From a bacterium (GTDB lineage Bacteria; ARS69), in NCBI GenBank assembly GCA_046330135.1, contig JAXLTI010000008.1:10302-74301 (forward strand): a stretch of DNA of 64,000 bases. Reading direction: 5' to 3'. The notes under the pieces are model-generated. The model searched no databases and was not told the origin of the DNA. It saw nothing but the letters and a program-made list of their open reading frames with translations. The position numbers and the translations under genes were made by a program. Shown here piece after piece: positions 1 to 15,806 of the stretch. The first letter of the stretch is position 1; each line of letters starts with the position of its first letter.

Positions 1-427
1 CAACGGCTGGTACGTGTGCGGGGACCGCGCCAGTCTGGATGCGGACGGCTACTTCTGGTTCACCGGCCGCGACGACGACGTCATCAATACCGGCGGGCAC
101 CTCGTGGGGCCCTTCGAGATCGAGAGCGCGCTGCTCGAGCACGAGGCCGTCGCGGAGTCCGCCGCCATCGGCAAGCCCGATCCCATGAACATGGAGGTCG
201 TGAAGGCGTTCGTGGCGCTGAAGCCCGGCTTCGGCGCGTCGTCGGATCTCGAGCTGTCCATCATGAACTTCATCCGCAAGAAGCTCTCCCCGCTCGCGAT
301 GCCGCAGGAGATCGAGTTCGTGGACCATCTCCCCAAGACGCGCAGCGGGAAGATCATGCGGCGCCTGCTCAAGGCCAAGGAATGGGGCCAGGAAGTGGGC
401 GACGTGAGCACGCTGGAGGATGCGTAG
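1..427 (+). CDS. AMP-dependent synthetase/ligase (acyl-CoA or acyl-ACP synthetase), C-terminal fragment; 5' end lies outside the window
   Basis: Frame-2 ORF runs from the window edge to TAG at 425-427. The translation ...[38 protein letters not shown]...[14 protein letters not shown] is the C-terminal subdomain of adenylate-forming enzymes, including the conserved C-terminal Lys. GC3 is high. Confidence 0.8.
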
Positions 428-533
428 GGCGTAGCTTCCGAAGCCCGATCGGCTTCGGCGATGGAGCCCACCCGGCCACGCGCTGCGCGGATGCGCACCG
501 GCGAGCGCCGGGTCCCGGAACGAGGAGCGTGTC

Positions 534-779
534 GTGAAGGACGTGATCCTGGACTACATCCGCAAGGAGTACCTGGACGAGGACGAGGACTTCGAGCTGG
601 ACGAGCACACGCCCCTCATCTCGGGCGGCATCGTGGACAGCTTCAGCATGGTGAGCCTGCTGCGGTTTCTCGAGAGGAAGTACTCGGTCTCCATTCCGGA
701 CGAGGAGGCCACCCCGGAGGCTTTCGACACGGTGGTGAGCATCATCGAGCTCGTGAAGCGCCACCAGAAGGGCAAGTGA
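534..779 (+). CDS. acyl carrier protein (specialised ACP, 81 aa)
   Basis: GTG start preceded by GAGGAG. The acidic protein MKDVILDYIRKEYLDEDEDFELDEHTPLISGGIVDSFSMVSL... has a DSF(S) phosphopantetheine-attachment-like motif. Its stop TGA overlaps the next ATG (TGATG). Confidence 0.75.
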   Translation: MKDVILDYIRKEYLDEDEDFELDEHTPLISGGIVDSFSMVSLLRFLERKYSVSIPDEEATPEAFDTVVSIIELVKRHQKGK

Positions 780-2026
780 TGTCGTACCCCGCCTCGGTGA
801 GGGAAGGCTACCTGACGGAGCTCGGCTCCATCCGCGAGAAGGGCATCTTCAAGGAAGAACGGTTCATCCATTCGCCGCAAGCGGCCGGGATCCGCGTGGA
901 GTTCCCCTCCGGCGCCGCGCTGCAGGACGTGGTGAACCTGTGCTCGAACAACTACCTCGGTCTCTCCAGCCACCCCGACGTGGTCGCGGCCGCCCACCGC
1001 GGCCTCGACGAGCGCGGCTACGGGATGTCCTCGGTCCGCTTCATCTGCGGCACGCAGGACATCCACCGCACGCTGGAGCGCAAGCTGACCGAGTTCCTCG
1101 GGACCGAGGACACCATCCTCTTCCCGAGCTGCATGGACGCGAACGCCGGCGTGTTCGAGGCGATTCTCGGACCCGAGGACATCATCATCTCCGATCGCCT
1201 CGTGCACGCGAGCATCGTGGACGGCATCCGCCTGTGCAAGGCGGAGCGGGACACGTACAAGCACGCGGACGCGGCGCACCTCGAAGAGAAGCTCGTGGAG
1301 CACGCGGGCAAGCGCGTGAAGATGATCGTGACGGACGGCAACTTCAGCATGGACGGGGACCTCGCCCCGCTGAAGGACATCTGCGACCTCGCCGACAAGC
1401 ACGGCGCGCTCGTCTTCGTGGACGACAGCCACGCCACCGGCTTCATCGGCAAGACGGGCCGCGGCACCCACGAGCACCACGGCTGCGTCGGCCGCATCGA
1501 CGTCATCACCACGACGCTCGGCAAGGCGCTGGGCGGCGCGAGCGGCGGCTGCGTGTCGGGCCGTAAGGAGATCGTGGACCTCTGCCGGCAGAAGGCGCGC
1601 CCCTACCTCTTCAGTAACGCGGTCCCGCCGCCGATCGCGTACGCGGCCGTGAAGGTCCTGGAGATCCTCGGCGCCACCACGGAGCGCCGCGACAAGCTCG
1701 AGCGCAACACCACGTTCTGGCGCAAGGCGCTCACGGACGCGGGTCTCGTGATCAAGGACGGCGAGAGCCCGATCGTCCCGGTGATGCTCTACAACGCGAA
1801 GCTCAGCCAGGACATGGCGCGGGACCTCTATCACGAGGGCATCTACGTGGTGGGCTTCTTCTTCCCCGTCGTGGCCGCGGGCCAGGCGCGGATCCGCACC
1901 CAGCTCTCCGCCGACCACGACATCCCGATGCTCCAGCGCGCCGCCGAGTCCTTCAAGAAGGTCGGCGCGAAGTACGGGATTCTCGGCCTCGACAAGAAGG
2001 GGATCCTCGAGAAGTACGGCGTGTGA
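779..2026 (+). CDS. alpha-oxoamine synthase family PLP enzyme (Kbl/glycine C-acetyltransferase-like; possibly acyl-ACP-dependent, SPT-like)
   Basis: ATG at 779 overlaps the ACP stop. The C-terminal ...[27 protein letters not shown]... closely matches the E. coli Kbl motif [27 protein letters not shown]. The PLP-Lys region [12 protein letters not shown] is present. The ORF-track start at 461 is an artefactual upstream extension. Confidence 0.8.
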   Translation: [415 protein letters not shown]

Positions 2027-2465: not shown

Positions 2466-3056
2466 ATGTCGAGCGATCCCCCTGTCGGCGCTCCTCCGCC
2501 GTCGCCCGCCGAACCCCCCGACACCTTCTTCGCCCGGGTCTACGAGGAGCTCCGGACGATCGCCCACGCCCGGTTGCGGGGCGAGCTGGGCAACCCGTCC
2601 CTGCAGACCACTGAGCTCGTGCACGAGGCGTTCCTCCGGCTGCGCGGGAGGGATGGAGACGCCTGGCCGGGTCGCGGCCAGTTCTTCGCCGCGGCGGCGC
2701 TGGCCATGCGCCGCATCCTCATCGAGCGGGCACGCGCCCGGAGCCGCGTCAAGCGCGGCGGCGACGCCGACGGCCGCGCGGCCGCCCGAGTGCCTCTGGA
2801 TCTGGAAGAGGTGGTGGCTCTCGCCGACGACCGCGACCCCGAGGCGATCCTCGCCATGGACGAGGCCATCGATCGCCTGGCCGAGAAGGACGACCGCGCC
2901 GCGCAAGTCGTGCGGCTCCGCTTCTACGGCGGGTTGGACGTGGAAGAGACGGCCGAGGCGCTGGGGACTTCCACGCGCACGGTGCTGCGCGACTGGGCGT
3001 TCGCGCGCGCGTGGCTCCACGTGGAGCTGACGGGCGGCGAGTCCGCGTCGGCCTGA
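2466..3056 (+). CDS. ECF-type RNA polymerase sigma-70 factor (kinase-associated ECF group)
   Basis: Region-2-like TTELVHEAFLRL and region-4-like RLRFYGGLDVEETAEALGTSTRTVLRDWAFARAWL. Paralog of the sigma at 10782. It is convergent with the TPR-kinase, with tails 2 bp apart. Confidence 0.8.
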   Translation: MSSDPPVGAPPPSPAEPPDTFFARVYEELRTIAHARLRGELGNPSLQTTELVHEAFLRLRGRDGDAWPGRGQFFAAAALAMRRILIERARARSRVKRGGDADGRAAARVPLDLEEVVALADDRDPEAILAMDEAIDRLAEKDDRAAQVVRLRFYGGLDVEETAEALGTSTRTVLRDWAFARAWLHVELTGGESASA

Positions 3057-3058
3057 CG

Positions 3059-5920
3059 CTACCGCGCGGCGGCCAGCGGGTAGTCCGCGCGGGCACGAAG
3101 GGGCGTGAGCTCCGCGTACTTCGCGACATCCGCCGGAGTGGCGCCGTGGCTGGCCGCCTCGGCAAGCTGCTTCACGGCGCCCTCCGTGTCGCCGGCCCGG
3201 GCGCGCACCGCCGCCCAGACGAGATGCGGGTTGCCGAGATCGGGATCGTCCGTCCCTGCGGTTCGCAGCGGCATTCCGACCCGCATCATGGCCTCCGCCT
3301 CCGGATGACGTCCCTGCATGGACCGCAAGTACGCGTGCTCGACGAGACATGCCCCGAGGTACATTCGCAGCGCCGCCTTGGTAGAGTCCATGCCCGCCTC
3401 TGCGCGCACGTAGAAGCTGTCCGCGCGCTGGGTGCGGCCTTGGTCGCGGCAGAGCGTGGCGTAGTCCATGGCCGCCAACGGGGCGAACACGCTGGTGGCC
3501 CTCACGCTGTCGAACACGGCGAAGGCCGCCCGGAACGTGGAGTCCGCTTGCCGCGGCCGCTTGGCCCACGCGTAGGTGCGCGCGAGATTCGCCATGGCTT
3601 CGCCGGTCCGCTCGTGCGCAAGACCCAAGCCCTTCTTACCCACGTCGCAAGCTTCCTGGCTGCGCGCAATGGCCAGATCCGGTTTGTCGGCGGTCCGGTA
3701 GAGCGCGCCGAGGGAGGTCAGGTCGCAAGTGAGGGATAGCGGATCTCCGATCGCTCTCCGGATGCGCACCGCCTCCTCTCGCGCCGTGATGGCTTCTTCG
3801 TAGCGCTTGCGGATCTCGAAAGCGTCGGCCTGACCCCCGAGCGCATCCGCGAGGTTCGGATGAGCCCCGGGATAGACGCTTCTCGCGAGGCGCAGGGCCT
3901 GATCCGCGTGGAGCTGCGTGTTCTGCGCGTCGCCCAGCGCCCGATGCACGTTCGCCAGGCGCCGATGAGCGTAGATGGCCCATCCGGTCAGGTCCGACCC
4001 CTCCGCCAGCTGGAGAGTGCGCGAGTACAAGCGCGCCGCTTCCCGGAGGTCGAACCGTTGGTGCGCGATCGTTGCCCGCGTGGAGTAGATCCGCAGAAGG
4101 GCCGTCGTGTCGGGGACCGCCTCCGCCTCCGCGAGTCGAAGGGCGCGTGTGAGGATCGAGTCCGCCTTCGCGAGCTCGCCGCGGTCGTCCCACCAGCTCC
4201 CTTTCCGGTAGAAGCATCTGGCCAGCAGGCGAGTGTCCGGCTTGGCAGAGCGCTGGAGGACGGCGATGGCGCGGTCCAGAACGACCGCCACGCTGTCGGA
4301 CCCCTGCGCGTCCAAGGCCTGGGCCAGGTTGTAGAGCTGACGCGCGGTCTCCGCTCCGGGGCGCGGCTCGGCCCGCTCCGTCGCGGCCAGCGCCTCGCGC
4401 GCGAGGCGGATCGACTCGTCGAAGCGACCGAGATTCTGATACGACTCCGACATCGCCGCCAGGAGGCGCGCCTGCACGAAGGGATCTTCGATCGTTCGGG
4501 ACTCGATGCGCCGGGTGCCCTCGTCCAAGAGGGTGCGCGCGGTCAGGTCCTTGCCCTTCGCCACGTCGGGATTCGAGGCGCCGAAGAGTCCCACCAGGAA
4601 GTCGGCCACCTGCTTCGACGACGTTGCTTCTCGCTCCGCCGTCCGTTCCGCGCGGACCGCGCGGCGGAGTCCCATGACGGTGGCCACTCCGCCGGCGACG
4701 ACCGCCAGCAGCACGAGTGCCGTGGCGGTGGTCATGACGCGGTGCTTGCGCACGAACTTCCGCAGGCGGTAGGCGGAGCCGGGCGCGGCGGCCAGCACCG
4801 GCTCGTCCGCGAGGTAACGCCGAACGTCGGCCGCCAGCTCCGCCGCGGACCCGTAGCGTCGCTCCGGGTCCTTCTCCAGCGCACGCCCCGCGATCCACTC
4901 CAGCTCGCCGCGCAGGTCTCGGAGCAGAACCCGCGCCTCGCACGAGCGGGCGGCCGCGACGGCGCCGAGAGTCTCCGCGGAGCGAGACAGCCGCGTGGCG
5001 AGCGGAGGAGGATCTTCCTCCCGAACCACCCGCAGCGCTTCGGAGAGCGGGCTCTCCGCGAGCCGGTCGGAGTCGAACGGCAAGACGCCCGTGAGCAGCT
5101 CGTAGAGCAGGACCCCGAGCGAGTACACGTCCGAGCGCGTGTCCACGGCGCCCGCCACGGCGCCCGACTGCTCCGGGCTCATGTAGCCGAGCGTTCCCAC
5201 GATCATGCCTTCGCGCGTGACGAGCGTTTCGCCGCGTCCGGGCGTCGTGGCCTTCACGACGCCGAAGTCGATGACCTTCGGTGAAGGCGCGCCGTCGCGT
5301 CGCGTGACGATCACGTTCGACGGCTTGAGGTCGCGGTGGATCACTCCCTTCTGGTGCGCGTGCTGCACGGCGTCGCAGACCGCAGCGAAGAGCGCCAGGC
5401 GTTCGCGGATGCGGAGGCGCTCCGCGTCGCAGAACTTGGTGATGGGCGAGCCGGGCACGTACTCCATCACGAAGTACGGGCGGCCGGTCTCGGTGGCGCC
5501 GGCCTCGAACACCTGCGCGATCCCGGGGTGCTCCATGAGCGCCAGCGCCTGACGCTCCACTTCGAATCGCGCCACGATCTGCGCCGTATCCATCCCCGGC
5601 TTGATGAGCTTCAGCGCCACGCGGCGGTGGATGGGCTTCTGCTGCTCCGCGAGCCATACGACGCCGAAGCCGCCTTCGCCGAGGATCTCGAGCAGGTGGT
5701 AGGCGCCGATGGTCCCGGCGGCGGGGGCGGAGGGGGCGGTGTCGCGCGGCGCGAGGAAGCGGTCGGCGGTTCCTTCGGAAGCGAGGAGCCGCTCGACGTC
5801 GGCGCGCAGCCTCGGGTCCTCGGCAGTCTCGCGGTCGAGCAACGCGCTCCGCTCGGCGGCGGGGAGATCGCGGGCGCGATCGAAGAGGTCGCGAAGGCGG
5901 TGCCAGCGCTCGTCGGTCAT
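3059..5920 (-). CDS. Ser/Thr protein kinase (Hanks-type) with a TM segment and C-terminal TPR repeats
   Basis: Kinase motifs GEGGFGVVWLA, VALKLIKP, HRDLKPSNV, DFG, SPEQ. A hydrophobic TM segment follows at about residue 400, then TPR-like repeats. The start is chosen at MTDERWHRLRDLF (5920) by analogy with the paralog. The ORF-track start at 6037 is probably an extension. Confidence 0.8.
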   Translation of the reverse strand: MTDERWHRLRDLFDRARDLPAAERSALLDRETAEDPRLRADVERLLASEGTADRFLAPRDTAPSAPAAGTIGAYHLLEILGEGGFGVVWLAEQQKPIHRRVALKLIKPGMDTAQIVARFEVERQALALMEHPGIAQVFEAGATETGRPYFVMEYVPGSPITKFCDAERLRIRERLALFAAVCDAVQHAHQKGVIHRDLKPSNVIVTRRDGAPSPKVIDFGVVKATTPGRGETLVTREGMIVGTLGYMSPEQSGAVAGAVDTRSDVYSLGVLLYELLTGVLPFDSDRLAESPLSEALRVVREEDPPPLATRLSRSAETLGAVAAARSCEARVLLRDLRGELEWIAGRALEKDPERRYGSAAELAADVRRYLADEPVLAAAPGSAYRLRKFVRKHRVMTTATALVLLAVVAGGVATVMGLRRAVRAERTAEREATSSKQVADFLVGLFGASNPDVAKGKDLTARTLLDEGTRRIESRTIEDPFVQARLLAAMSESYQNLGRFDESIRLAREALAATERAEPRPGAETARQLYNLAQALDAQGSDSVAVVLDRAIAVLQRSAKPDTRLLARCFYRKGSWWDDRGELAKADSILTRALRLAEAEAVPDTTALLRIYSTRATIAHQRFDLREAARLYSRTLQLAEGSDLTGWAIYAHRRLANVHRALGDAQNTQLHADQALRLARSVYPGAHPNLADALGGQADAFEIRKRYEEAITAREEAVRIRRAIGDPLSLTCDLTSLGALYRTADKPDLAIARSQEACDVGKKGLGLAHERTGEAMANLARTYAWAKRPRQADSTFRAAFAVFDSVRATSVFAPLAAMDYATLCRDQGRTQRADSFYVRAEAGMDSTKAALRMYLGACLVEHAYLRSMQGRHPEAEAMMRVGMPLRTAGTDDPDLGNPHLVWAAVRARAGDTEGAVKQLAEAASHGATPADVAKYAELTPLRARADYPLAAAR

Positions 5921-6064
5921 CGCCCGCGAGTCTACCGGATATCGCGCCGCCCGGGCGCGGTGCGTGGTGGTGCTTCTCGATGGATCGCCCGGGTTCCCGC
6001 CCTCGAAGTCCGCGCACATGACACGGATCGTCCGCAACCGGGGGGAGCGGGTCCCGCCGACGAA

Positions 6065-6092
6065 GAGGCCGGAACCACCAGGTCCCGGCCTC
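6065..6092. terminator. GC-rich hairpin (GAGGCCGG-N12-CCGGCCTC) in the spacer downstream of the FG-GAP gene
   Basis: Perfect 8-bp inverted repeat read directly from the sequence. There is no U-tract, as expected in a high-GC genome. Function unproven. Confidence 0.2.
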
Positions 6093-6224
6093 TTCCCACA
6101 ACCATCGCGCCATCACGATCTTCCGCGCCTCGCTGCAACCTCCGACCTGCCGCGAACTGACGCCCGGGGAGCCTGGTGCCGTCGGTGAGGCGCCCGGCCG
6201 TCGATCGCTTCCTGCGGACGCAGG

Positions 6225-9200
6225 CTACTTCAGCCGCACCACCCGACGCGTCTGCTGCTGCCCCGCCGCCTGTAGGCGCACGAAGTACACCCCACTCGCC
6301 ACCGACTTGCCCTCCGTGTCGCGACCGTCCCAGCTCATCCGGTAGGAACCAGGATCATGCGCGCCGTGCGCGAGCTCGCGCACCAGCCGGCCAGCGACGT
6401 CGAAGATCCGCACGCTCGCCTCGCCCGCCCTCGGCAGAGCGAACTCGATCACCGTGCTCCCGCGGAACGGGCTCGGCGACGGCGCCTTCAGGCCGAACGC
6501 CAGCGCTCCGACTTCCGGCGCCCCCACTCCCGCTTGCGGTTCCACGATCACGAACGGCGACAGCGATGTGCTTTGCCCGCAAACGATGTTCGCGTTCGTG
6601 TCCAGGGACGACGTGACGTCCACCCACGAGCCCGAAGCGAAGTGGTACATCTTCAGGTTCGCCTCGCTCCCCACGACATCCGTGTCGTTGTAGTGCAGGC
6701 ATACCGTCACCTGCCCCGTGAAAGTCGCCGTCGTCGAGATGTCGTCGTACACCGGCGGAGAGACCGGAACGATCTGGAAGCCCGCCGGCGGCGGCGGACC
6801 TGCGCTCTCCACATTCACCGACGTGATCCCTTCCGAGGTCACCTGGTCGAAGGTCGCGGTCACCGCGGGACCCAGCGTGACCTGCACGTTCGTGCCGGTT
6901 CCCGTGTACGCCGAGTAGACGGACGGATTGTCCAAATGCCCCCGAAGGTCGGCCTCGGAGCCACCGTTTCCCGGCCACCCCCAGACCCAGCGCGAACGCG
7001 GGAAGAACGGCGAGTCGGTGATCACGCGTGCCCGCCAGTGGTACATGTCTCCCGGTGTCAGCCCGCTGACGAGCTGAGTCAACGAGACGGCACTTCCCGA
7101 GGGCCCCGGCGCCCCGGTGTCCGTGCGCGGACCGATCTGCAGGTTGTTCCCGTTGAAGGACGTTCCAAGTCGCTTCTTCTCGACGACCAGACGCACCCTT
7201 CCACGTCCTGCCGGCGTGCGACCGAGCACCTTCGCGCGGAACGCGACCTCCGAGTCCGACTGGCCGAGCAACGCGATGGGAGCGGAGTCGTCGGTACGCA
7301 CCTGGCGGGGAGCGAGGTCGAGGCCGTCACCTCCGTTGCCGTAGTAGACGGCCGCTGTAGCCGGGGCCCCCCCGTAGTACCCGGTGTTCCCGACGATCAC
7401 GTCCGAGTACCCGTCCCCGTTCACGTCCCCCGCCACGCCGACGGCCTCGCCACCCTGAGTCCCGTCTGTCCATGCGGGGCTCGCCCCCAGCCCCGGACCC
7501 AGATACAGGTACGCGCTGCGCGCGCTACGGGTGCCGACGATGACGTCGGAGTATCCGTCTCCGTTCACGTCGCCTGCCGTGCCCACCGCGGTGCCGAAGC
7601 TCGCATTGGTTGGGCCGTCTACTGTCCATTGGGGATTCGTCGATGGACCCGACACGGAACCCATGTACACGCAGGCCCGCCCCGCGAAGTTGTTGCGGCC
7701 CGGGGCGCCGACGATGATGTCCGAGTACCCGCCCCCGTTCACGTCTCCTGCCGTACCCACGGAAGAGCCGAGGTTCGCATTGGGCTGATCGCCCATCGCC
7801 GTCCAGGCGGGCGACGCGGCGAGCCCCGTGGGCGACCCCAAATACACGTAGGCCTTCCCCTCCTGATGTGGGCCGTAGCCGGGGGCGCCCACGATGACGT
7901 CCGAGTACCCGTCCCCGTTCACATCACCCGCGGTGGCCGCGGACGCGCCGAATGCCGAGTCGTACTGGTCATCCTGTGCGGTCCATGCGGGGCTCGCCGC
8001 CAGCCCTGACGACGACCCCAAGTACACGTGTGCGCGTCCCGTTACGCCGAACAAAAGGTCACCCTTCGCGCCCACGACGACGTCGGCATACCCGTCCCCG
8101 TTCACGTCCCCCGCCGTGCCGACCGGGCCCCCGAACCAGGCGTGCTCCCGATCGCTCTCCGCCGTCCAGGCGGGACTCGCCGACAGACCCGACGAGGACC
8201 CCAGATACACGTACGCTCGTCCCTCATCGACCTGGCCGTCGTCGTACGAGTAGGCCCCAACGATGATGTCCGAGTACCCATCCCCGTTCACGTCCCCCGC
8301 GGTACCCGCGGAGACGCCGAATCCCGCTCCGGCTTGATCGCTCTCTGCCGTCCACGCGGGGCTCGCCGACAATCCGGACGAGGACCCCAGGTACAAGTAC
8401 GCTCGTCCTTCGTTTGCTTCGCCATCGTCGTAGTACATGGCGCCCACGATGACGTCCGAGTACCCGTCCCCGTTCACGTCGCCCGCTGTCCCCACGGAGA
8501 CTCCGAAGTACGAATCGGGCTGATCGCTCGCCACCGTCCATCCCGGACTCGCGGCCAATCCCGACGCCGATCCGTGATACACGTAGACTCGCCCCGCGTC
8601 GCTCTGGGCGCCGTCGTACAGCGGAGCCCCGACGATGACGTCCGAGTACCCGTCCCCGTTCACATCCCCCGCCGTACCTGCGGAGGAGCCGAAGAACCCT
8701 ATGGCTTGATCACCCTCGGCGGTCCACGTGGGGCTGACCGCCAGCCCCGACGAGGAACCCAGATACACGTACGCCCGCCCCTGTTCGATCAGGCCGTCGT
8801 CGTATCCGTACGCCCCGATCACGACGTCCGCGAATCCGTCCCCGTTCACGTCTCCCGCCGTGCCCACGGAGCGGCCGAGTCCGGATCCGGATTGACCGGC
8901 GTCGGCCGTCCAGGAAGCGCTCCCGGCCAGTCCCGAAGCAGACCCCAGATACAGGTACGCCTGGCCCACCGTGTCGTCGCCCACGATGACGTCCGAGTAC
9001 CCGTCCCCGTTCACGTCCCCCGCCGTTCCCACGGAGACGGCGAAGTCCGATGCGACGAATTGGGCCTGGGCCGTCCAGGCGGGGCTCCCGGCCAGCCCGG
9101 AGGCGGAACCCAGATACACGTACGCCTGCCCGTGTCTAGTGAGGCCCAGGTCGTAGAGCGGGGCTCCGACGATGACATCCGAGTACCCGTCCCCGTTCAC

Positions 9201-10640
9201 ATCTCCCGCCGTCCCCACGGAGGCGCCGAAGGTCGCGCCCGCCATGTCGCTTTCCGCCGTCCACGCGGCGCTCGCCGCAAGGCCGGACGCGGACCCCAGA
9301 TACACGTACGCTCGCCCTTCGTCGGTTTGGCCGTTGTCGTACCCTCTGGCGCCGACGATGACGTCCGCGTACCCGTCCCCGTTCACGTCCCCCGCGGTAC
9401 CTACGGAGATGCCGAAGTACGCCGAGTCTTGATTACTCTCCGCCGTCCAGGAGGGACTCGCGGCCAGCCCCGAAGCGGACCCGAGGTACACGTACGCCCG
9501 CCCTTCGTCGGTCTGGCCGTTGTCGTACCCGTACGCCCCGACGATGACGTCCGAGTACCCATCGCCGTTCACATCCCCGGCAGCGCCCACGGACCGGCCG
9601 AAGTACGCCGACGCCTGATCACCCTCGGCCGTCCACGCGGGGCTCGCCACCAGCCCGGACGCGGACCCCAGGTACACGAACGCGCGGCCCGCGTCGGTCT
9701 GACCGGTGTCGTACCGATGCGCTCCGACGATGACGTCCGAGTATCCGTCCCCATTCACGTCCCCCGCCGTGCCCACGGAGATCCCGAAGAACTCCGAGGC
9801 CTGATCGCCGTCCGCCGTCCAGGCCGGAGAGGTCATGAGGGGATCGATGGCGATGGGGTAGGTCGCCGCGCCGTCCTCGATCAGGATCGCGAGCTGCTCA
9901 CCCGAAAGCCCCAGTCGCGCGGGGAGCGCGCGCCCGCTCGCATCCACGGCATGTACGTCCGCGTAGCGCAGCACGCGCGCTCCGTGCTCGTCCAGGAAGT
10001 CCACCGCACCGTCCTTCAGTTGAGCGTGGAGCGCGCCCGCCACGTGCCCCTCGAGACGCAGCGCGCCCTCACCCGCGGGTCGCTCGCGCACCGTGAAGCC
10101 CTGCTCGAGACCCTCCTTCTTGTTCTCGTACCACTCGTCGAAGCCTTCGCGCACGTAGCACACGCGAGCGCCGTCGACCTTCGGTTCGAGCGGAGCGGCA
10201 TCGATCACGTGCATCTGCCCCGCCCGGCCAAGCTGCGTCGTCCGCCACGCGAAGCGCCAAGAGGACGCGAGCGGGCTCGGCTGCTGCCGCGGCACTACTT
10301 CGATCCCGCCCGCGCGGAAGTAGGTGCGAAGACCCTGAGCGCGGTTCGGCGCCTGCAACCCCGCCGAGGTGACCGACGCGCGATACTCGCCGCCCTCGAT
10401 CTGGGCGGAGACGGTCTGCCACCAGCCCGCTCCTGCGCCCGCCGTCCGCGCGCCGGGCGTGATGTCCGGCTGCCGCGCGAGCGCGGTGGCGGCCGGCATG
10501 GCGAGTACGCGGGGAGTGAGCGGGCGAACAGTCGAGTCCTTCTGGACGGACGTGCTCGCGATCAGGAGCAGGGGGACGAACACGAAGGAGCGAAGGGCGG
10601 CCAGATGCGGCTCCACCCTCCGGCGGGCGTGCGAGTTCAT
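6225..10640 (-). CDS. giant FG-GAP (integrin-alpha-like) repeat protein with signal peptide and C-terminal Por/T9SS sorting domain
   Basis: ATG at 10640 has an excellent SD (aAAGGAGGcatccc). Signal-peptide-like MNSHARRRVEPHLAALRSFVFVPLLLIAST. About 14 tandem ~60-aa units contain GTAGDVNGDGYSDVIVGA...GRAYVYLGS. The C-terminal tail ...IFDVAGRLVRELAHG...GVYFVRLQAAGQQQTRRVVRLK is typical of the T9SS/FlgD-Ig-like CTD. The ORF-track start at 10745 is an extension. Confidence 0.85.
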   Translation of the reverse strand: MNSHARRRVEPHLAALRSFVFVPLLLIASTSVQKDSTVRPLTPRVLAMPAATALARQPDITPGARTAGAGAGWWQTVSAQIEGGEYRASVTSAGLQAPNRAQGLRTYFRAGGIEVVPRQQPSPLASSWRFAWRTTQLGRAGQMHVIDAAPLEPKVDGARVCYVREGFDEWYENKKEGLEQGFTVRERPAGEGALRLEGHVAGALHAQLKDGAVDFLDEHGARVLRYADVHAVDASGRALPARLGLSGEQLAILIEDGAATYPIAIDPLMTSPAWTADGDQASEFFGISVGTAGDVNGDGYSDVIVGAHRYDTGQTDAGRAFVYLGSASGLVASPAWTAEGDQASAYFGRSVGAAGDVNGDGYSDVIVGAYGYDNGQTDEGRAYVYLGSASGLAASPSWTAESNQDSAYFGISVGTAGDVNGDGYADVIVGARGYDNGQTDEGRAYVYLGSASGLAASAAWTAESDMAGATFGASVGTAGDVNGDGYSDVIVGAPLYDLGLTRHGQAYVYLGSASGLAGSPAWTAQAQFVASDFAVSVGTAGDVNGDGYSDVIVGDDTVGQAYLYLGSASGLAGSASWTADAGQSGSGLGRSVGTAGDVNGDGFADVVIGAYGYDDGLIEQGRAYVYLGSSSGLAVSPTWTAEGDQAIGFFGSSAGTAGDVNGDGYSDVIVGAPLYDGAQSDAGRVYVYHGSASGLAASPGWTVASDQPDSYFGVSVGTAGDVNGDGYSDVIVGAMYYDDGEANEGRAYLYLGSSSGLSASPAWTAESDQAGAGFGVSAGTAGDVNGDGYSDIIVGAYSYDDGQVDEGRAYVYLGSSSGLSASPAWTAESDREHAWFGGPVGTAGDVNGDGYADVVVGAKGDLLFGVTGRAHVYLGSSSGLAASPAWTAQDDQYDSAFGASAATAGDVNGDGYSDVIVGAPGYGPHQEGKAYVYLGSPTGLAASPAWTAMGDQPNANLGSSVGTAGDVNGGGYSDIIVGAPGRNNFAGRACVYMGSVSGPSTNPQWTVDGPTNASFGTAVGTAGDVNGDGYSDVIVGTRSARSAYLYLGPGLGASPAWTDGTQGGEAVGVAGDVNGDGYSDVIVGNTGYYGGAPATAAVYYGNGGDGLDLAPRQVRTDDSAPIALLGQSDSEVAFRAKVLGRTPAGRGRVRLVVEKKRLGTSFNGNNLQIGPRTDTGAPGPSGSAVSLTQLVSGLTPGDMYHWRARVITDSPFFPRSRWVWGWPGNGGSEADLRGHLDNPSVYSAYTGTGTNVQVTLGPAVTATFDQVTSEGITSVNVESAGPPPPAGFQIVPVSPPVYDDISTTATFTGQVTVCLHYNDTDVVGSEANLKMYHFASGSWVDVTSSLDTNANIVCGQSTSLSPFVIVEPQAGVGAPEVGALAFGLKAPSPSPFRGSTVIEFALPRAGEASVRIFDVAGRLVRELAHGAHDPGSYRMSWDGRDTEGKSVASGVYFVRLQAAGQQQTRRVVRLK
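7310..9830. repeat. intragenic tandem repeats (~14 x ~180 bp) encoding FG-GAP units
   Basis: The repeated protein unit is visible in the translation. The opposite strand yields repeated artefactual ORFs (MTSEYPSPFTSPAVPT...). Confidence 0.7.
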
Positions 10641-10781
10641 GGGATGCCTCCTTTTCTCGGCGCGCCCTTCATGCGCCGGAAACGCCCGGACCCCGCCAAC
10701 CGCCGCGCTGGATTGGGCGAATTCGCACCGCGTCCGCGTGGCCACTTGAGGCCGCAGCGGCCCCCCGGTACCATCGCGAGC

Positions 10782-11351
10782 ATGAACGAATCGACCGGGG
10801 AAGAAGCGGGGGACGCCGGCACCACCTCCGACGCCTTCTTCGGCCTCGTCTACGACGAGCTGCGTTCACTCGCGCACGCCAGGATGCAAGGTGAGCGAGC
10901 CGGGCACACCCTTCAGACGACCGAGCTGGTTCACGAGGCCTACCTCCGCCTTTCGCGCGGCGGCGAGGGCTCGTGGCAGAACCGCGGTCACTTCTTCACG
11001 GCCGCGGCCGAGGCGATGCGGCGTATCCTCATCGAGCGGGCGCGCCGAAGGGGGCGCGTGAAGCGCGGTGCCGATTCCGAGGGGCGACCCGTGGAACGCG
11101 TCCCTCTCAACGTCGCCGAGATCGCTGCTCTGGCCGACGACGGGGATCCCGAGACGGTGCTCGCCATGGACGCCGCGATCGAACGCCTCGCTCGGCGGGA
11201 CGAACGCCTGGCGAAGGTCGTGAAGCTCCGCTTCTACGCGGGGTTGACGGTCGAAGAGATCGCGGAGGTCCTCGGGACGTCGCCTCGCACCGTCCAGCGG
11301 AGCTGGGCGTTCGCGAGGGCGTGGCTCTACGGGGCCGTTTCCCGGGAATAA
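10782..11351 (+). CDS. ECF-type RNA polymerase sigma-70 factor, paralog 2
   Basis: ATG at 10782. The protein MNESTGEEAGD...QTTELVHEAYLRL...VVKLRFYAGLTVEEIAEVLGTSPRTVQRSWAFARAWL is a paralog of the sigma at 2466. It is divergent, across a 141-bp spacer, from the FG-GAP gene. Its 3' end overlaps the convergent kinase by 25 bp. The upstream part of the 8028..11351 ORF is antisense artefact. Confidence 0.8.
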   Translation: MNESTGEEAGDAGTTSDAFFGLVYDELRSLAHARMQGERAGHTLQTTELVHEAYLRLSRGGEGSWQNRGHFFTAAAEAMRRILIERARRRGRVKRGADSEGRPVERVPLNVAEIAALADDGDPETVLAMDAAIERLARRDERLAKVVKLRFYAGLTVEEIAEVLGTSPRTVQRSWAFARAWLYGAVSRE

Positions 11352-14185
11352 CCCGCCCGGGCGCGGAGCGGAGCGAGCTCCGGGTAACCGGCTACCGTGG
11401 CGGGGGTGGCACCGCAGCGCTGCGCGCGCCGGAGCTTCTCGATCGCCCCGTCGGGGTCGCCGGCGTTAACCCGCGCGGCGGCCCAACGAACGAGGGCGTC
11501 TCCCAGCTCCTTGCTGTCTTTGGGGGCGTCTCCGAACATGAGCACCATGGAAGTGCTCAGCATGGACTCCGCCTCGACATGGCGACCCTGGAGAGAGCGC
11601 AGGTAGCCGTGATCGCCGAGACAGTCCGCGTAGTGCAGCCTGCTGGGCGCGTGACTCGAGTCCATCGCGGCTTCCCCGCGCGAATACAGTGCATCCGCCT
11701 GCTCGAAGCGTCTCAGCCTCCGACACACCGTTCCGTGGCCCTTGTACGCGTCACCCAGGCGCACTCCGCGCGGCTCGCGATGCTCGAACACCGGAATGGC
11801 CTTCCGGTAGAGCGAATCCGCCCGGGCTTCCGATCCGAGGGCGTCCCAGCAGTAGGCGAGCAAGCTGAGCGCTTCCGCGGTTCGCACGTTGTCCGGCCCC
11901 ACGGTACGCTCCCAGATGACGTACGACTCCTGGAAGCAGTCCCTCGCGCGGGCGAAGTCCTCCGCCTGCAAACAGTACACGCCGACGTTCTTCAGCTCGT
12001 GCGCGAGAGCGGTCGGCATGTCTCGCGCTCGGAAGATCCCCACCGCCTCCTCGTCGACGTCAATCGCCTGCTTGACTTCGCCGCCAGCTCCGAGCGCCGC
12101 GGCCCACGCGGCAAGCGCGTCGGCGTACATGAAGTGGTCCGGCCCGTAGAGCTTCCGCGCGAGGTCCACCGCTTCTTTCGCGTGACGGACCGCCTTCTCG
12201 GGCTCGTTCATCGCCGCGTACACCCAACTCAACCCTCTGTGAGCGCCAGCCGCGCTCATGGGTCGGGCCGTCTGCTCTGCGATCCGGAGCATGCGGAGGT
12301 AGCACTTCTCGGCGGTCGCGCAATCCGATCTGCGTAGAGCGATCATCGCCTTGGTCGCCAGCAGTCTCGGCAGCTGCGAGTTGTCGATCGGGGTCTTCGC
12401 CTCCACTACGCCGAGGGCGCGCGAGATCAGCGAATCTGCGGGCGCGTAGTCCCCGTGCTGCATGAGCCAGACCCCCTTCTCGGTCAAGTACCGCTCGAGG
12501 AAGTCGGAGTCCCCATGACCCAGCGCCGGCAACATCGCTTCCAAGCGACCGAAGAGGGGTTGGGCGACGTCGTCCTTGCCCGCCTGCGTCAGGCCGCTCG
12601 CCAGTCGGAGGGTCTGCTCCGCAACCGCCCGATCCTCCTTCGGCTTGATCGAGTCGACGGTCGCCAGCGCGGCGCGCAGGAGCCGCACACCCTCGTCGGT
12701 GAGCCCAAGGTTCAAGTGCGCCTCCCCAAGGGAAGTGAGCAATCGGGCACGAACCCGTGGATCGCCCGGGCCGCTCGCCTCGATGCGACGTGTGCCCTGT
12801 TCCAGCAGCTCGCGCGCCGTGACGTTCTCGCCTTGAGTGTGTTGGGGAGTCGTGGATTGGAACAGATCCACCAAGAAGTCGCTCACCTGCGAGGCCGTCT
12901 CCGCCTCGCGTCGAGCCACCCGCTCCCCTCGCCGGAAGCCCATCGCGGCGACGATGCTGCCCACGAGCACGGCCAGGAGCACGACGGTGGCGGCGGCCAC
13001 GGCGGCGCGGTGCCGGCGCACGAGCTTGTCGAGTCGGTAGACGGTGCTCGGCGCGGCGGCGGCGAGCGGCTCGCCCGCTAGGAAGCGACGGACGTCCGTC
13101 GCGAGCTCGCCCGCCGACGCGTAGCGGCGATCGGGGTCCTTCTCCAAGGCGCATGTCGTGATCCACCGGACATCGCTTCGAAGGTCCCGCAGCAGGCGGC
13201 GTGGGTCGGTGGAACGGCGCGCGGCAGTCTCGGCCAGAATCTCCGGCTCTCGGGAGGTCCGAGTCACCATCGGCGGTGGATCCTCTTCGCGAATCACACG
13301 CAAGGCTTCCGATGTCGGCATCGCACGCAGGCGGTCCGGGTCGAATGGAGGTGCTCCTGTCAGAAGCTCGTGGAGCATCGCACCGAGCGCGTAGACGTCC
13401 GTTCGAGTATCGACGGCCCCGGGCGCCATGCCCGCCTGCTCCGGACTCATGTACGCGAGCGTACCCAGCACGACGCCCTCCTGTGTCCACGGTGCGGTCT
13501 GCTCCGCGCCCGTCGGCGTCGTCGCTTTCGCGATGCCGAAGTCGATTACCTTGGACGCCACGCCGCGCTCGCGCCGAGCGACGATCACGTTCGACGGCTT
13601 GAGGTCGCGGTGAATGACCCCTCGCTGGTGCGCGTGCTGCACGGCGTCGCAGACGTCGGCGAAGAGCGCGAGACGATCTCGGACATCGAGGCGTTCCCGA
13701 TCGCAGAACGAGGTGATCGGCTCTCCAGGCACGTATTCCATGACGAAATACGGTCGACCGGCTTCCGTCTCGCCCGCCTCGAGGACCTGGGCGATGCCCG
13801 GATGGTCCATCAGCGCCAGCGCCTGGCGCTCGGCCTCGAACCGCGCGACCGTCTGCTTCGTATCCATCCCGGGCTTGATGAGCTTGAGCGCGACGCGCCG
13901 CCGGATGGGTCGAGTCTGCTCGGCCAGGTACACGACGCCGAAGCCGCCTTCACCGAGGGTCTCCACGAGCCGGTAGGGCCCGATCGATCCGAGGTCGCCC
14001 TTCGATTCTCGCGACACCAGGAATTCGACGGCGGACTCGTCCGCGGCGAGCAGGGCGACGAGCTCCGCTCGCAGCGCCGGATCGTCCGCGAGGTCGCGCT
14101 CGAGCAGCGTGCGCCGCTCCTCGAGGGACATGCCCTGGGCGCGGTCGAACAGCTCTTGAAGGCGCTGCCAGCGTTCGTCACTCAC
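11327..14185 (-). CDS. Ser/Thr protein kinase with TM segment and TPR repeats, paralog 2
   Basis: GEGGFGVVYLA, VALKLIKP, HRDLKPSNV, DFG, SPEQ. A TM segment is followed by TPR-like repeats. GTG start at VSDERWQRLQELF (14185) has GGAGGA 8 nt upstream. An alternative ATG lies at 14254. Confidence 0.75.
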   Translation of the reverse strand: MSDERWQRLQELFDRAQGMSLEERRTLLERDLADDPALRAELVALLAADESAVEFLVSRESKGDLGSIGPYRLVETLGEGGFGVVYLAEQTRPIRRRVALKLIKPGMDTKQTVARFEAERQALALMDHPGIAQVLEAGETEAGRPYFVMEYVPGEPITSFCDRERLDVRDRLALFADVCDAVQHAHQRGVIHRDLKPSNVIVARRERGVASKVIDFGIAKATTPTGAEQTAPWTQEGVVLGTLAYMSPEQAGMAPGAVDTRTDVYALGAMLHELLTGAPPFDPDRLRAMPTSEALRVIREEDPPPMVTRTSREPEILAETAARRSTDPRRLLRDLRSDVRWITTCALEKDPDRRYASAGELATDVRRFLAGEPLAAAAPSTVYRLDKLVRRHRAAVAAATVVLLAVLVGSIVAAMGFRRGERVARREAETASQVSDFLVDLFQSTTPQHTQGENVTARELLEQGTRRIEASGPGDPRVRARLLTSLGEAHLNLGLTDEGVRLLRAALATVDSIKPKEDRAVAEQTLRLASGLTQAGKDDVAQPLFGRLEAMLPALGHGDSDFLERYLTEKGVWLMQHGDYAPADSLISRALGVVEAKTPIDNSQLPRLLATKAMIALRRSDCATAEKCYLRMLRIAEQTARPMSAAGAHRGLSWVYAAMNEPEKAVRHAKEAVDLARKLYGPDHFMYADALAAWAAALGAGGEVKQAIDVDEEAVGIFRARDMPTALAHELKNVGVYCLQAEDFARARDCFQESYVIWERTVGPDNVRTAEALSLLAYCWDALGSEARADSLYRKAIPVFEHREPRGVRLGDAYKGHGTVCRRLRRFEQADALYSRGEAAMDSSHAPSRLHYADCLGDHGYLRSLQGRHVEAESMLSTSMVLMFGDAPKDSKELGDALVRWAAARVNAGDPDGAIEKLRRAQRCGATPATVAGYPELAPLRARAGYSRETAP

Positions 14186-14300
14186 GCAGGAGATCCTCCG
14201 CGGATTCCGCCGTCGAGGGGCGGCAGGATGCACCGCCACGACGCGCCGGCGCAAGGGTGGAGGGGAAGCGCGGTCGGCCCCGTCCGTCGCGTCGTGCGAC

Positions 14301-15806
14301 TTGTGCTACCCTGCCCGTTCGTTGCTTTGCACGCGGAACCGACTCACGACCCGAGGAACGGGGCGGGAGGAGCGTTTGGAGACTCCCGAGGCCTGGGCGG
14401 ACGAGATCGTCGGCCGGGCGGCGAGCGCGGCGGAGGCCTTCCTCCAGGTCGACCAGCCGCACGTCGACCGGATCGTCCGCGCCGTGTTCGAGGCGGCGTA
14501 CGCCGCACGATTGGACCTCGCGCGCATGGCCTTCGAAGAGACCGGCATGGGTCTCTACGAGCACAAGGTCATCAAGAACGCGTGGGCCAGCCTCCTCATC
14601 TACGAGGACATCCGCGAGCGGAGGACCGTCGGGCTGATCCGCGAGGACGCCGCACGGGGATTGGCGGAGATCGCGGTTCCCAAGGGGCCGATCCTCGCCA
14701 CGATCCCCGTGACGAACCCCACGTCCACGACGATCTTCAAGGCGCTCATCTGCATGAAGACCCGCAACCCGGTGATCTTCAGCCCGCATCGCGGCGCGCG
14801 GAAGTGCATCCGCGAAGCGGCGCGGATCTGCGCGGAGGCGGCCGCCGCCGCCGGGGCGCCCGACGGTGCCATCCAGTGGATCACGAAGGCGCCCATCGAT
14901 TACGTGAAGGCGGCCATGCGCCACCGCAAGCTCGCGTTGATCCTCGCGACCGGGACCGGCTCGATCGTGCGTCTCGCGCAGGAGTCCGGTACGCCCACGC
15001 TCGGCGTGGGGCCCGGCAACGTGCCCGTGTACGTCCACGCCTCCGCGGACCTCCCGGCCGCCGCCCGCGCGATCGTCCACTCGAAGACGTTCGACAACGG
15101 CGTCGTGTGCGCGAGCGAGCAGGCGCTCGTGGTGGAGCGCGGCCTCCAGGCGGAATTCCGCGCCCTGATGGAGGAGCGCGGCGCGCACTACTGTACGAAG
15201 GAGGAGTCCCGCCTCCTGGAGCCGCAGTGCTTCGATCCTTCTCGGCGCGGCATGCGCGCCGAGGTCGTGGGGCAGCCGGCAGCCGTCATCGCGCAGCGCG
15301 CCGGCTTCCGCGTGCCGAAGAAGACGCGTCTCCTCGTGGCGGAGCCTCTGGGCGTGGGGCCGGAGCACCCGCTCTCGTACGAGATCCTCGCGCCGGTGCT
15401 CGCGTCCTACCCGGTGGACAGCTACGACCAGGCGCTCGCCACGTGCCGGGAGCTGGCCGAGCACGGCGGCCTCGGCCACACCGTGGGTGTGTACGCACGC
15501 GACGAGCGCGTCGTGGCGGACTTCTCGCGGCTGAACGTGGCGCGGATTCTCGTGAATCAGCCCTGCACGGAGGGCGCGATCGGCGGGATCTTCAACTCGC
15601 TGCGGCCGTCCCTCACGCTGGCCTGCGGCTCCGGCGCGGGCAACGCGAACACCGACAACATCACGGTGGAGCACCTCCTGAACATCCACCGCGTGGCCCG
15701 CTTCCACGACAACGGCGGCTGGAGCGCCGTCCCGCGCGAAACCTGGCTCGACCCGGCCACGGGACCCCGCGAGATCGTGGCGCGCTACCGAAGAACCGAG
15801 GGCTAG
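14301..15806 (+). CDS. CoA-acylating aldehyde dehydrogenase (EutE/PduP-like ALDH)
   Basis: ALDH-fold protein with catalytic Cys in DNGVVCASEQ and LGVGPGNVP. The start is uncertain: the first ~25 codons are low-GC3, and an alternative TTG lies at 14375. Confidence 0.65.
   Translation: MCYPARSLLCTRNRLTTRGTGREERLETPEAWADEIVGRAASAAEAFLQVDQPHVDRIVRAVFEAAYAARLDLARMAFEETGMGLYEHKVIKNAWASLLIYEDIRERRTVGLIREDAARGLAEIAVPKGPILATIPVTNPTSTTIFKALICMKTRNPVIFSPHRGARKCIREAARICAEAAAAAGAPDGAIQWITKAPIDYVKAAMRHRKLALILATGTGSIVRLAQESGTPTLGVGPGNVPVYVHASADLPAAARAIVHSKTFDNGVVCASEQALVVERGLQAEFRALMEERGAHYCTKEESRLLEPQCFDPSRRGMRAEVVGQPAAVIAQRAGFRVPKKTRLLVAEPLGVGPEHPLSYEILAPVLASYPVDSYDQALATCRELAEHGGLGHTVGVYARDERVVADFSRLNVARILVNQPCTEGAIGGIFNSLRPSLTLACGSGAGNANTDNITVEHLLNIHRVARFHDNGGWSAVPRETWLDPATGPREIVARYRRTEG

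Follow-up and report, generated by a model that had tools for sequence, protein, structure and literature searches.

A conserved ligase, carrier protein and Kbl-clade synthase unit that may be a carrier-protein-dependent counterpart of the acetyl-CoA synthetase and glycine C-acetyltransferase pair

A conserved three-gene unit

What does a bacterium make with an adenylate-forming ligase, an acyl carrier protein (ACP) plus a pyridoxal 5'-phosphate (PLP)-dependent 2-oxoamine synthase (AOS) whose genes stand side by side? The question is raised by positions 1-2026 of a 64,000-nucleotide stretch of bacterial DNA (lineage ARS69; assembly GCA_046330135.1, contig JAXLTI010000008.1, positions 10,302 to 74,301 of the forward strand), here called the window, which are filled by a co-directional trio of this kind. 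The first-pass annotation of this DNA had likened the trio to bacterial serine palmitoyltransferase (SPT) loci and had proposed a sphingoid base or another amino lipid as its product. The evidence assembled here points elsewhere: the module almost certainly handles a two-carbon unit and not a membrane lipid, and comparison of its proteins with known families suggests, with a probability that we put at about one half, that it is a carrier-protein-dependent version of the pair formed by acetyl-CoA synthetase (Acs) and glycine C-acetyltransferase (Kbl). The trio and its spacer are laid out as follows:

2..427, plus strand: 3' end of an Acs-type adenylate-forming ligase gene (141 codons and the stop TAG at 425-427), a frame-2 open reading frame (ORF) that runs off the left edge of the window
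428..533, plus strand: spacer of 106 nt between ligase and ACP, holding an 8-bp hairpin at 438-458
534..779, plus strand: predicted dedicated carrier protein (ACP), 81 aa, with a GTG start and GAGGAG 7 nt upstream
779..2026, plus strand: PLP-dependent 2-oxoamine synthase of the Kbl clade, ACP-linked subclade, 415 aa, overlapping the ACP stop in TGATG

That the three genes run in one direction and that the ACP stop overlaps the synthase start had been noted before and is confirmed on the sequence, the final A of TGATG being common to the ACP stop TGA (777-779) and the synthase ATG (779-781). An ACP alignment was used to scan a collection that holds one genome per species, and at least 550 matching stretches were found in more than 10 named lineages, among them Acidobacteriota (Vicinamibacterales and Terriglobales), Zixibacteria, Ignavibacteria, Aminicenantes, Planctomycetota, Polyangia, Gemmatimonadota, Eisenbacteria, KSB1, Calditrichaeota and Chrysiogenales; the neighbourhood counts given throughout refer to the best 80 of these stretches. 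The synthase lies directly 3' of the ACP in 75 of the 80 loci and the ligase directly 5' of it in 63 (70 if a ligase anywhere in the locus is counted), no more than 7 nt separate ACP and synthase at about 32 of 73 loci, and an AcpS-type phosphopantetheinyl transferase (PPTase) is encoded upstream in 33/80, often by the first gene. The window, which starts inside the ligase gene, holds no AcpS gene, no tdh (threonine dehydrogenase) and no second kbl within its 64 kb.

A second sampling, independent of the ACP scan, was seeded with the ligase and run on metagenome contigs. All 39 ligases that are at least 58% identical to a module ligase have an ACP within 600 nt, with the synthase downstream in 27 of 28 cases, whereas an ACP accompanies just one of the 33 ligases that are 56% identical or less, a split which indicates that the ACP-linked ligases are a discrete clade. 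Ligase, dedicated ACP and oxoamine synthase are one conserved unit, so that the single-module architecture proposed in the first-pass annotation is borne out in both scans, and linkage this obligate also means that the ACP and the ligase do not belong to an unrelated pathway. A canonical Kbl paralogue lies within 10 kb of the module in 11 loci, and in four Vicinamibacterales loci that are without the module synthase a TIGR01825-type Kbl adjoins the ligase instead.

A few loci depart from the usual layout. Two ACP copies in different contexts occur in L019 and L050, which come from the same metagenome-assembled genome (SMAG_U2999), and also in L061 and L069; one copy stands with a ligase, a TIGR01825-type Kbl, a CoA-transferase-GNAT fusion and an aldehyde dehydrogenase (ALDH), and the other with AcpS and the module synthase. 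L170 (4944-6864) has a more distant ligase, which shares 43% identity with the module ligase, and after it a likewise distant ACP (36%), but no Kbl-type gene nearby; other Acs-like ligase/ACP pairs therefore exist. The genes inserted between ligase and ACP in L037, L063, L080 and L081 are by eye toxin-antitoxin and HAD-type genes and were set aside as uninformative.

The ligase, the carrier protein and the synthase

The window covers the C-terminal 141 residues of the ligase, the last 140 of which score 223 bits on NF003313 (acetate--CoA ligase). This fragment is 91% identical to the C-terminus of the ligase of locus L007, with orthologues 82-91% identical over the fragment; full-length orthologues (567-571 aa) score 765 (L007) and 760 bits on NF003313, above the cut-off of 729, and the solved structure nearest to an orthologue is 9g79, an entry named acetyl-coenzyme A synthetase (561 bits). 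On the NF003313 scores the ligase, which had been called acyl-ACP-synthetase-like, is instead of the acetyl-CoA synthetase type. In Acs numbering, the acetate-pocket residues V310, T311 and V386 and the pocket-closing W414 are invariant in 62/62 module ligases, and the same is true of the catalytic lysine (K609), which is present in the window fragment as well. The invariance of the four pocket residues argues for acetate, or propionate at most, as the acyl group; the predicted pocket would have room for about C2-C3 and none for a fatty acid, and the substrate of the module ligases, as judged from these residues, is almost certainly acetate or at most propionate.

A comparator for the ligase is the short (PRK04319) AMP-forming acetyl-CoA synthetase, which it resembles in its model scores, in its acetate pocket and catalytic lysine, and in having Pat-like GNAT neighbours, but from which it differs in that its clade is obligately followed by an ACP and has F or Y in place of W413 and G or A in place of S523. 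The neighbours in question, which recur near the module, are fusions of a Pat-like GNAT domain with a CoA-transferase or an ADP-forming ACS, and Pat acetyltransferases are known regulators of Acs. One unusual protein, P0263 (949 aa), is an Acs-type ligase split by an insertion of about 390 aa between '...YWCV' and 'CTADPGWVTG'; this insert has HNC at its end and is intein-like.

The 81-aa ACP scores 18.8 on Pfam PP-binding, just under the gathering score of 20.8, and its best NCBIfam model is that of the OlsHI ACP, with 59.5 bits where the cut-off is 130. Its predicted phosphopantetheine site is Ser36, which stands in the invariant motif GIVDSFSMVSL, the pair D35-S36 being invariant. In the AlphaFold model (pLDDT 92), helices span residues 2-13, 39-50 and 67-79, one of them beginning just past Ser36, and the best Foldseek matches of this model (TM 0.82-0.87) are the carrier proteins PigG, PltL and DltC, all of which are stand-alone carriers loaded by adenylating enzymes. 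Taking the predicted fold at face value, the 81-aa ORF is a genuine carrier protein. The family to which it belongs is unusually conserved, with more than 8000 clusters and 60-94% identity across phyla.

The synthase passes two glycine C-acetyltransferase-type models, scoring 567 bits on TIGR01822 (glycine C-acetyltransferase; cut-off 493) and 560 on NF005394 (cut-off 460), and it fails the SPT models NF047600 (298, cut-off 640), NF047599 (254, cut-off 500) and NF047603 (228, cut-off 670); against the BioF, ALAS and CqsA models its scores are all below cut-off. Its residues 13-402 align with E. coli Kbl (1FC4) at 458 bits and about 54% identity, compared with about 195-209 bits for solved SPTs and about 187 for BioF, and the Kbl likeness that the first-pass annotation had seen at the C-terminus is thus real but extends over the whole length. 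In a neighbour-joining tree the synthase falls inside Kbl, with the module synthases monophyletic there, a placement that speaks, together with the failed SPT models, against membership of the SPT clade. The protein is identical to NCBI MFN8179611.1, which is named 'glycine C-acetyltransferase'. An AlphaFold model of the synthase (pLDDT 62.5, from a shallow alignment) was set aside and played no part in the analysis.

In E. coli Kbl numbering, H136, S185, D210, H213, T241, K244 and R368, the last of which we take to be the arginine that binds the glycine carboxylate in Kbl, are invariant in 64 module synthases including the window protein. Fixed in the module synthases are N135V/I, A168H, L264C and L298R. 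Residue N135 adjoins the PLP-stacking histidine, and at this position the rest of the Kbl-type proteins examined, canonical paralogues from the same loci among them, all have asparagine, while E. coli BioF has serine; the clade also conserves a basic C-terminal tail of 12 aa. Measured against the E. coli kbl-tdh system, the module synthase is alike in its sequence identity, in passing the Kbl equivalog model, in keeping the catalytic residues and in having tdh in 10 of the 80 operons, and it is unlike in being linked to a dedicated ACP (translationally coupled in the window) and an Acs-type ligase, in forming its own clade, marked by N135V, A168H, L264C, L298R and the basic tail, that coexists with canonical Kbl, and in its thiol partner, which would be ACP and not CoA.

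The tdh genes of these 10 operons belong to two unrelated families. An SDR-type (short-chain dehydrogenase/reductase, GalE-like) Tdh is found at seven loci (Planctomycetales, Ignavibacteria, a Zixibacterium and two unclassified bins), with 461 bits to a solved TDH, and a Zn-dependent Tdh at three Zixibacteria loci, the copy in L057 scoring 382.5 on NF003808, just above the cut-off of 380. That Tdh proteins from one or the other of these unrelated families are encoded in the operon is a good argument for counting the Tdh step as part of the pathway. The earlier remark that the synthase is not next to a tdh is true for the visible 64 kb, the upstream side lying beyond the window, and none was seen in the window's nearest relatives examined. 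An arrangement that the first-pass annotation had held to be incompatible with its lipid reading, namely a Kbl-clade synthase next to tdh together with an ACP and ligase from an unrelated pathway, is found in its first half, given the Kbl-clade placement and the tdh genes in the operons of several lineages, and is not found in its second.

Carrier-bound acetyl transfer and its alternatives

Since the PPTase, the ligase and the synthase are the sole conserved enzymes able to act on the carrier, the simplest closed scheme is one built from these three. The AcpS-type transferase would convert the 81-aa ACP to its holo form, as gene linkage and fold suggest, and the ligase would adenylate acetate and pass the acetyl group to the ACP thiol, instead of or besides CoA, the invariant pocket pointing to the substrate and the obligate gene linkage to the acceptor. 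An acetate pocket combined with a Kbl-clade enzyme predicts that an acetyl thioester and glycine are interconverted with 2-amino-3-oxobutanoate, and the Kbl-clade enzyme would accordingly catalyse acetyl-S-ACP + glycine <-> 2-amino-3-oxobutanoate + HS-ACP, a chemistry suggested by its clade membership and catalytic residues, with a thioester partner suggested by the translational coupling. The 2-amino-3-oxobutanoate might be interconverted with L-threonine by Tdh, as the tdh genes in some operons suggest, or might decarboxylate spontaneously to aminoacetone. The net reaction would be acetate + ATP + glycine <-> 2-amino-3-oxobutanoate + AMP + PPi, giving a C4 amino-keto acid, and a plausible rationale for a private carrier is that its acetyl-thioester/thiol ratio could be set apart from that of the cellular acetyl-CoA/CoA pool.

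CitC and the citrate lyase ACP offer a precedent from central carbon metabolism, in which a dedicated carrier protein has its thiol acetylated by an ATP-dependent ligase. CitC is of another protein family than the module ligase, and the citrate lyase ACP carries a phosphoribosyl-dephospho-CoA group, not phosphopantetheine, and has a lyase as its partner, not a PLP enzyme. The comparator for the architecture as a whole is the AasR/AcpR/SPT system of Caulobacter and other Rhodobacteria, encoded by clustered genes, in which the ligase loads a specialised ACP, the acyl-ACP is preferred by the oxoamine synthase, and a long-chain fatty acyl group and serine give 3-oxosphinganine (PMC9386255). The module shares with this system a ligase, a special ACP (here presumably loaded in the same way), a PLP oxoamine synthase and gene clustering, but it differs in having an Acs-type ligase with an acetate pocket, a Kbl-type synthase and no conserved lipid genes, so that the likening of the locus to bacterial SPT loci is right as to the ligase/ACP/AOS logic and wrong as to SPT membership.

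The same comparison disposes of most of the case for a fatty acyl-ACP synthetase, ACP and SPT-like enzyme that together make a sphingoid base or a long-chain amino lipid. The matching architecture (PMC9386255) and the weak best NCBIfam match of the ACP, to an ornithine-lipid ACP, do speak for it. The SPT models are far below their cut-offs, however, the synthase sits in the Kbl clade, the acetate pocket with W414 is intact throughout the 62 ligases, and the ligase orthologues pass the acetate--CoA ligase model. A search for ketosphinganine reductase or ceramide synthase neighbours, which the first-pass annotation had suggested, found no recurrent reductase or ceramide-synthase-like family among the ORFs within about 8 kb at the 80 loci, by de novo clustering only and with no reference bCerS or CerR search; the same clustering found no acyltransferase neighbour and no other widely shared partner gene, and what recurs instead is tdh. 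A lipid product is thus largely refuted, and we regard it as scarcely credible.

Several observations weigh against the carrier-dependent reading. Both the formation of acetyl-ACP by the ligase and its use by the synthase are steps that we infer from sequence. The module ligases keep both R194 and R584 (the latter present in the window fragment), which in Salmonella Acs we take to be the residues that bind the CoA 3'-phosphate, and CoA may therefore still be the acceptor. In the window fragment Acs R526 is replaced by leucine, and this change is invariant in the module ligases, yet it is found in ACP-less sister ligases too; it was therefore rejected as a signature of ACP loading and is uninformative about the acyl acceptor. 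The basic C-terminal extension of the synthase is likewise a weak candidate for an ACP-docking mark, since the canonical paralogue in L057 has an extension too, and in L090 the synthase and the ACP are 3.5 kb apart, with the ligase not seen nearby. The linkage to tdh, finally, and the order tdh-ligase-ACP-AOS-canonical kbl in the Zixibacteria locus L057 fit the catabolic direction better than the condensing one. An ordinary CoA-dependent Acs and Kbl, with ACP and PPTase co-located for regulation, for scaffolding or for an unseen third partner, would account for the retained arginines, for the fact that both enzymes pass the NCBIfam equivalog cut-offs of CoA-dependent enzymes (the ligase via its orthologues), for the Pat-like GNAT fusion proteins near several loci and for the public annotation of the synthase. 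It would leave unexplained why the ACP gene stands between those of the ligase and the synthase, with translational coupling to the latter, why ACP linkage marks a discrete ligase clade (39/39 against 1/33), why the synthases form a discrete clade with fixed substitutions beside the PLP-stacking histidine, and why canonical Kbl paralogues coexist with them, and no further conserved partner appears in the 80 neighbourhoods; we judge it improbable. We think it a longer shot still that the same logic serves other small substrates, the acyl group being for instance propionate or glycolate and the amino acid alanine or serine. The reaction might then include a decarboxylation, and the product would be a small amino-ketone with a use in signalling or as a precursor of a cofactor or of a pyrazine. 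In favour of this, the fixed N135V and the other synthase changes could alter which substrates are used or which reaction is catalysed, the module ligases have F or Y in place of W413, and after the module in Ignavibacteria and Zixibacteria stands a third AOS-like gene, a distant one. Against it, the four acetate-pocket residues and R368 are invariant, linkage to tdh suggests threonine's C4 skeleton, and conservation as high as this between phyla resembles that of core metabolism and not that of signalling.

The direction of the reaction is a closer matter. Because an ATP-using ligase is obligately linked to the module, and because the AasR-AcpR-SPT trio runs towards condensation (PMC9386255), we lean slightly towards the ATP-driven, condensing direction over the reverse. 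The occurrence of the module in Terriglobales and Vicinamibacterales is a third reason for this lean. Cultured members of both orders are mostly aerobes, in which turning an acetyl thioester into free acetate gains nothing. Run backwards, the same parts would make a route of threonine catabolism: Tdh would oxidise threonine, the synthase would cleave 2-amino-3-oxobutanoate with holo-ACP to glycine and acetyl-ACP, and the ligase would convert acetyl-ACP, AMP and PPi to acetate and ATP, or hand the acetyl group to CoA via acetyl-AMP, with a private ACP pool that stays highly acetylated and so drives ATP formation. Two unrelated tdh types in the operon (Ignavibacteria, Zixibacteria, Planctomycetota and others) favour this route, as do the canonical kbl genes that directly follow the module synthase in the same orientation in L057, L062 and L028, which look like parallel and not opposing branches, and the acylating ALDH and CoA-transferase neighbours, characteristic of pathways that break down acetyl thioesters. 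Those tdh-kbl operons that have been characterised serve catabolism, and an AMP-forming Acs reportedly makes ATP in Syntrophus aciditrophicus. The catabolic route would nonetheless need an AMP-forming ligase that works mainly in reverse, it would be wasteful in the mostly aerobic lineages just named, no tdh is nearby in 70 of the 80 loci, and canonical Kbl already does the job with CoA, so that we consider it rather unlikely.

If the carrier-dependent reading is right, its consequences reach beyond this locus. Public databases label the module's genes 'acetate--CoA ligase / acyl carrier protein / glycine C-acetyltransferase', and metabolic models accordingly treat them as assimilating acetate and degrading threonine; this may be wrong, and Acs and Kbl genes would then be mis-modelled in genome-scale reconstructions of these phyla. 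Acs and Kbl are textbook CoA-dependent enzymes, and here discrete clades of both would be wired to a dedicated carrier with its own PPTase; channelling on carrier proteins, familiar from lipids and natural products, would then extend to small-molecule C2 and amino-acid metabolism, and the module is spread over many poorly studied soil and sediment phyla. We propose tentatively, as somewhat less likely than not, that CoA has given way to a private ACP in carrying the C2 unit between acetate and the glycine/threonine pair, which would be an unrecognised node of central metabolism, widespread in Acidobacteriota, Zixibacteria, Ignavibacteria, Aminicenantes, Gemmatimonadota, Eisenbacteria and other lineages. 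Such a node could take the form of an ATP-driven conversion of glycine and acetate to 2-amino-3-oxobutanoate and on to threonine, a new glycine-assimilating route, or possibly that of a threonine fermentation in which ATP is recovered from acetyl-ACP. In open-access papers and bioRxiv we found no description of an Acs/ACP/Kbl module or of an acetyl-ACP/threonine system, although prior work may exist.

The spacer hairpin and the neighbouring genes

The hairpin that the first-pass annotation had pointed out between ligase and ACP is present at 438-458 (CCGAAGCC-CGATC-GGCTTCGG, with an 8-bp stem), but nothing about it goes beyond chance. In the window, which has a G+C content of 71%, there are 30 perfect 8-bp hairpins with loops of 3-8 nt, against about 22 in shuffled sequences. 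No U-tract follows the hairpin and the scan gave no terminator-like site; the spacer 428..533 folds no better than shuffled sequence (z = -0.68) and has no Rfam match, and spacer and hairpin are not conserved in the close relative L088. Given its chance frequency and the absence of a U-tract, of conservation and of an Rfam match, we rejected the hairpin as a regulatory element. No riboswitch was found upstream of the operon in the nine relatives examined.

Further downstream in the window lies one gene with a tentative association with the module:

14376..15788, plus strand: acylating ALDH homologue, within ORF 14301..15806, 83% identical to the ALDH of L088

In L088 and L090 an ALDH directly follows the synthase, and a homologous ALDH occurs in 16 of the 80 loci; the L088 protein is AdhE-N/EutE-like but below cut-offs. 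The ALDH of the window is about 12 kb from the synthase, with ECF-sigma (extracytoplasmic function sigma factor) and kinase genes between them, and given the direct succession in L088 and L090 this 12-kb block looks like an insertion. Among the window's closest relatives, a LytS-type histidine kinase is encoded divergently upstream of the ligase in L088 (194-1345, minus strand) and on the P0011/P0123 contig, in P0011 with a LytTR response regulator, and in L090 (204-1346, minus strand) such a kinase directly precedes the synthase, again divergently. The LytS/LytTR system is a possible regulator of the operon, and its upstream position is reminiscent of carboxylate-scavenging regulons, an analogy that would favour condensation.

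Some further genes next to the synthase were noted. In L041 (12020-13255), L054 and L077, from Ignavibacteria and a Zixibacterium, the third AOS-family gene mentioned above lies just downstream of the module synthase; its product shares 31-35% identity with the module synthase and reaches no NCBIfam cut-off. The Iso_dh gene beside the synthase in L001 and L002 was considered as a pathway enzyme and dismissed, its product being by eye (N-terminus) an ordinary isocitrate dehydrogenase and not a conserved neighbour. In L001 (10254-12701) the synthase and this dehydrogenase are called as an 815-aa fusion, which is probably a frameshift or an assembly error, L002 being near-identical and having two genes (10254-11501 and 11504-12700).

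In the window itself, an ORF of 27 codons at 2180-2263 on the minus strand (MLALFNAILDLVLNKLSANHNQTVLRA), with a strong AAGGAG Shine-Dalgarno sequence 7 nt before its ATG, lies between the synthase and an ECF sigma gene and is a candidate only. The region 2466-14254 holds two pairs, each of a PF07638-type ECF sigma gene (2466-3056, and the 3' part of ORF 8028-11351) and a divergent gene for a Ser/Thr kinase-TPR protein (3059-6037 and 11327-14254, both on the minus strand). Between the two sigma/kinase pairs lies a gene for a 1506-aa repeat protein (6225-10745, minus strand), whose GDVNGDGYxDVIVGA repeats are FG-GAP-like by eye.

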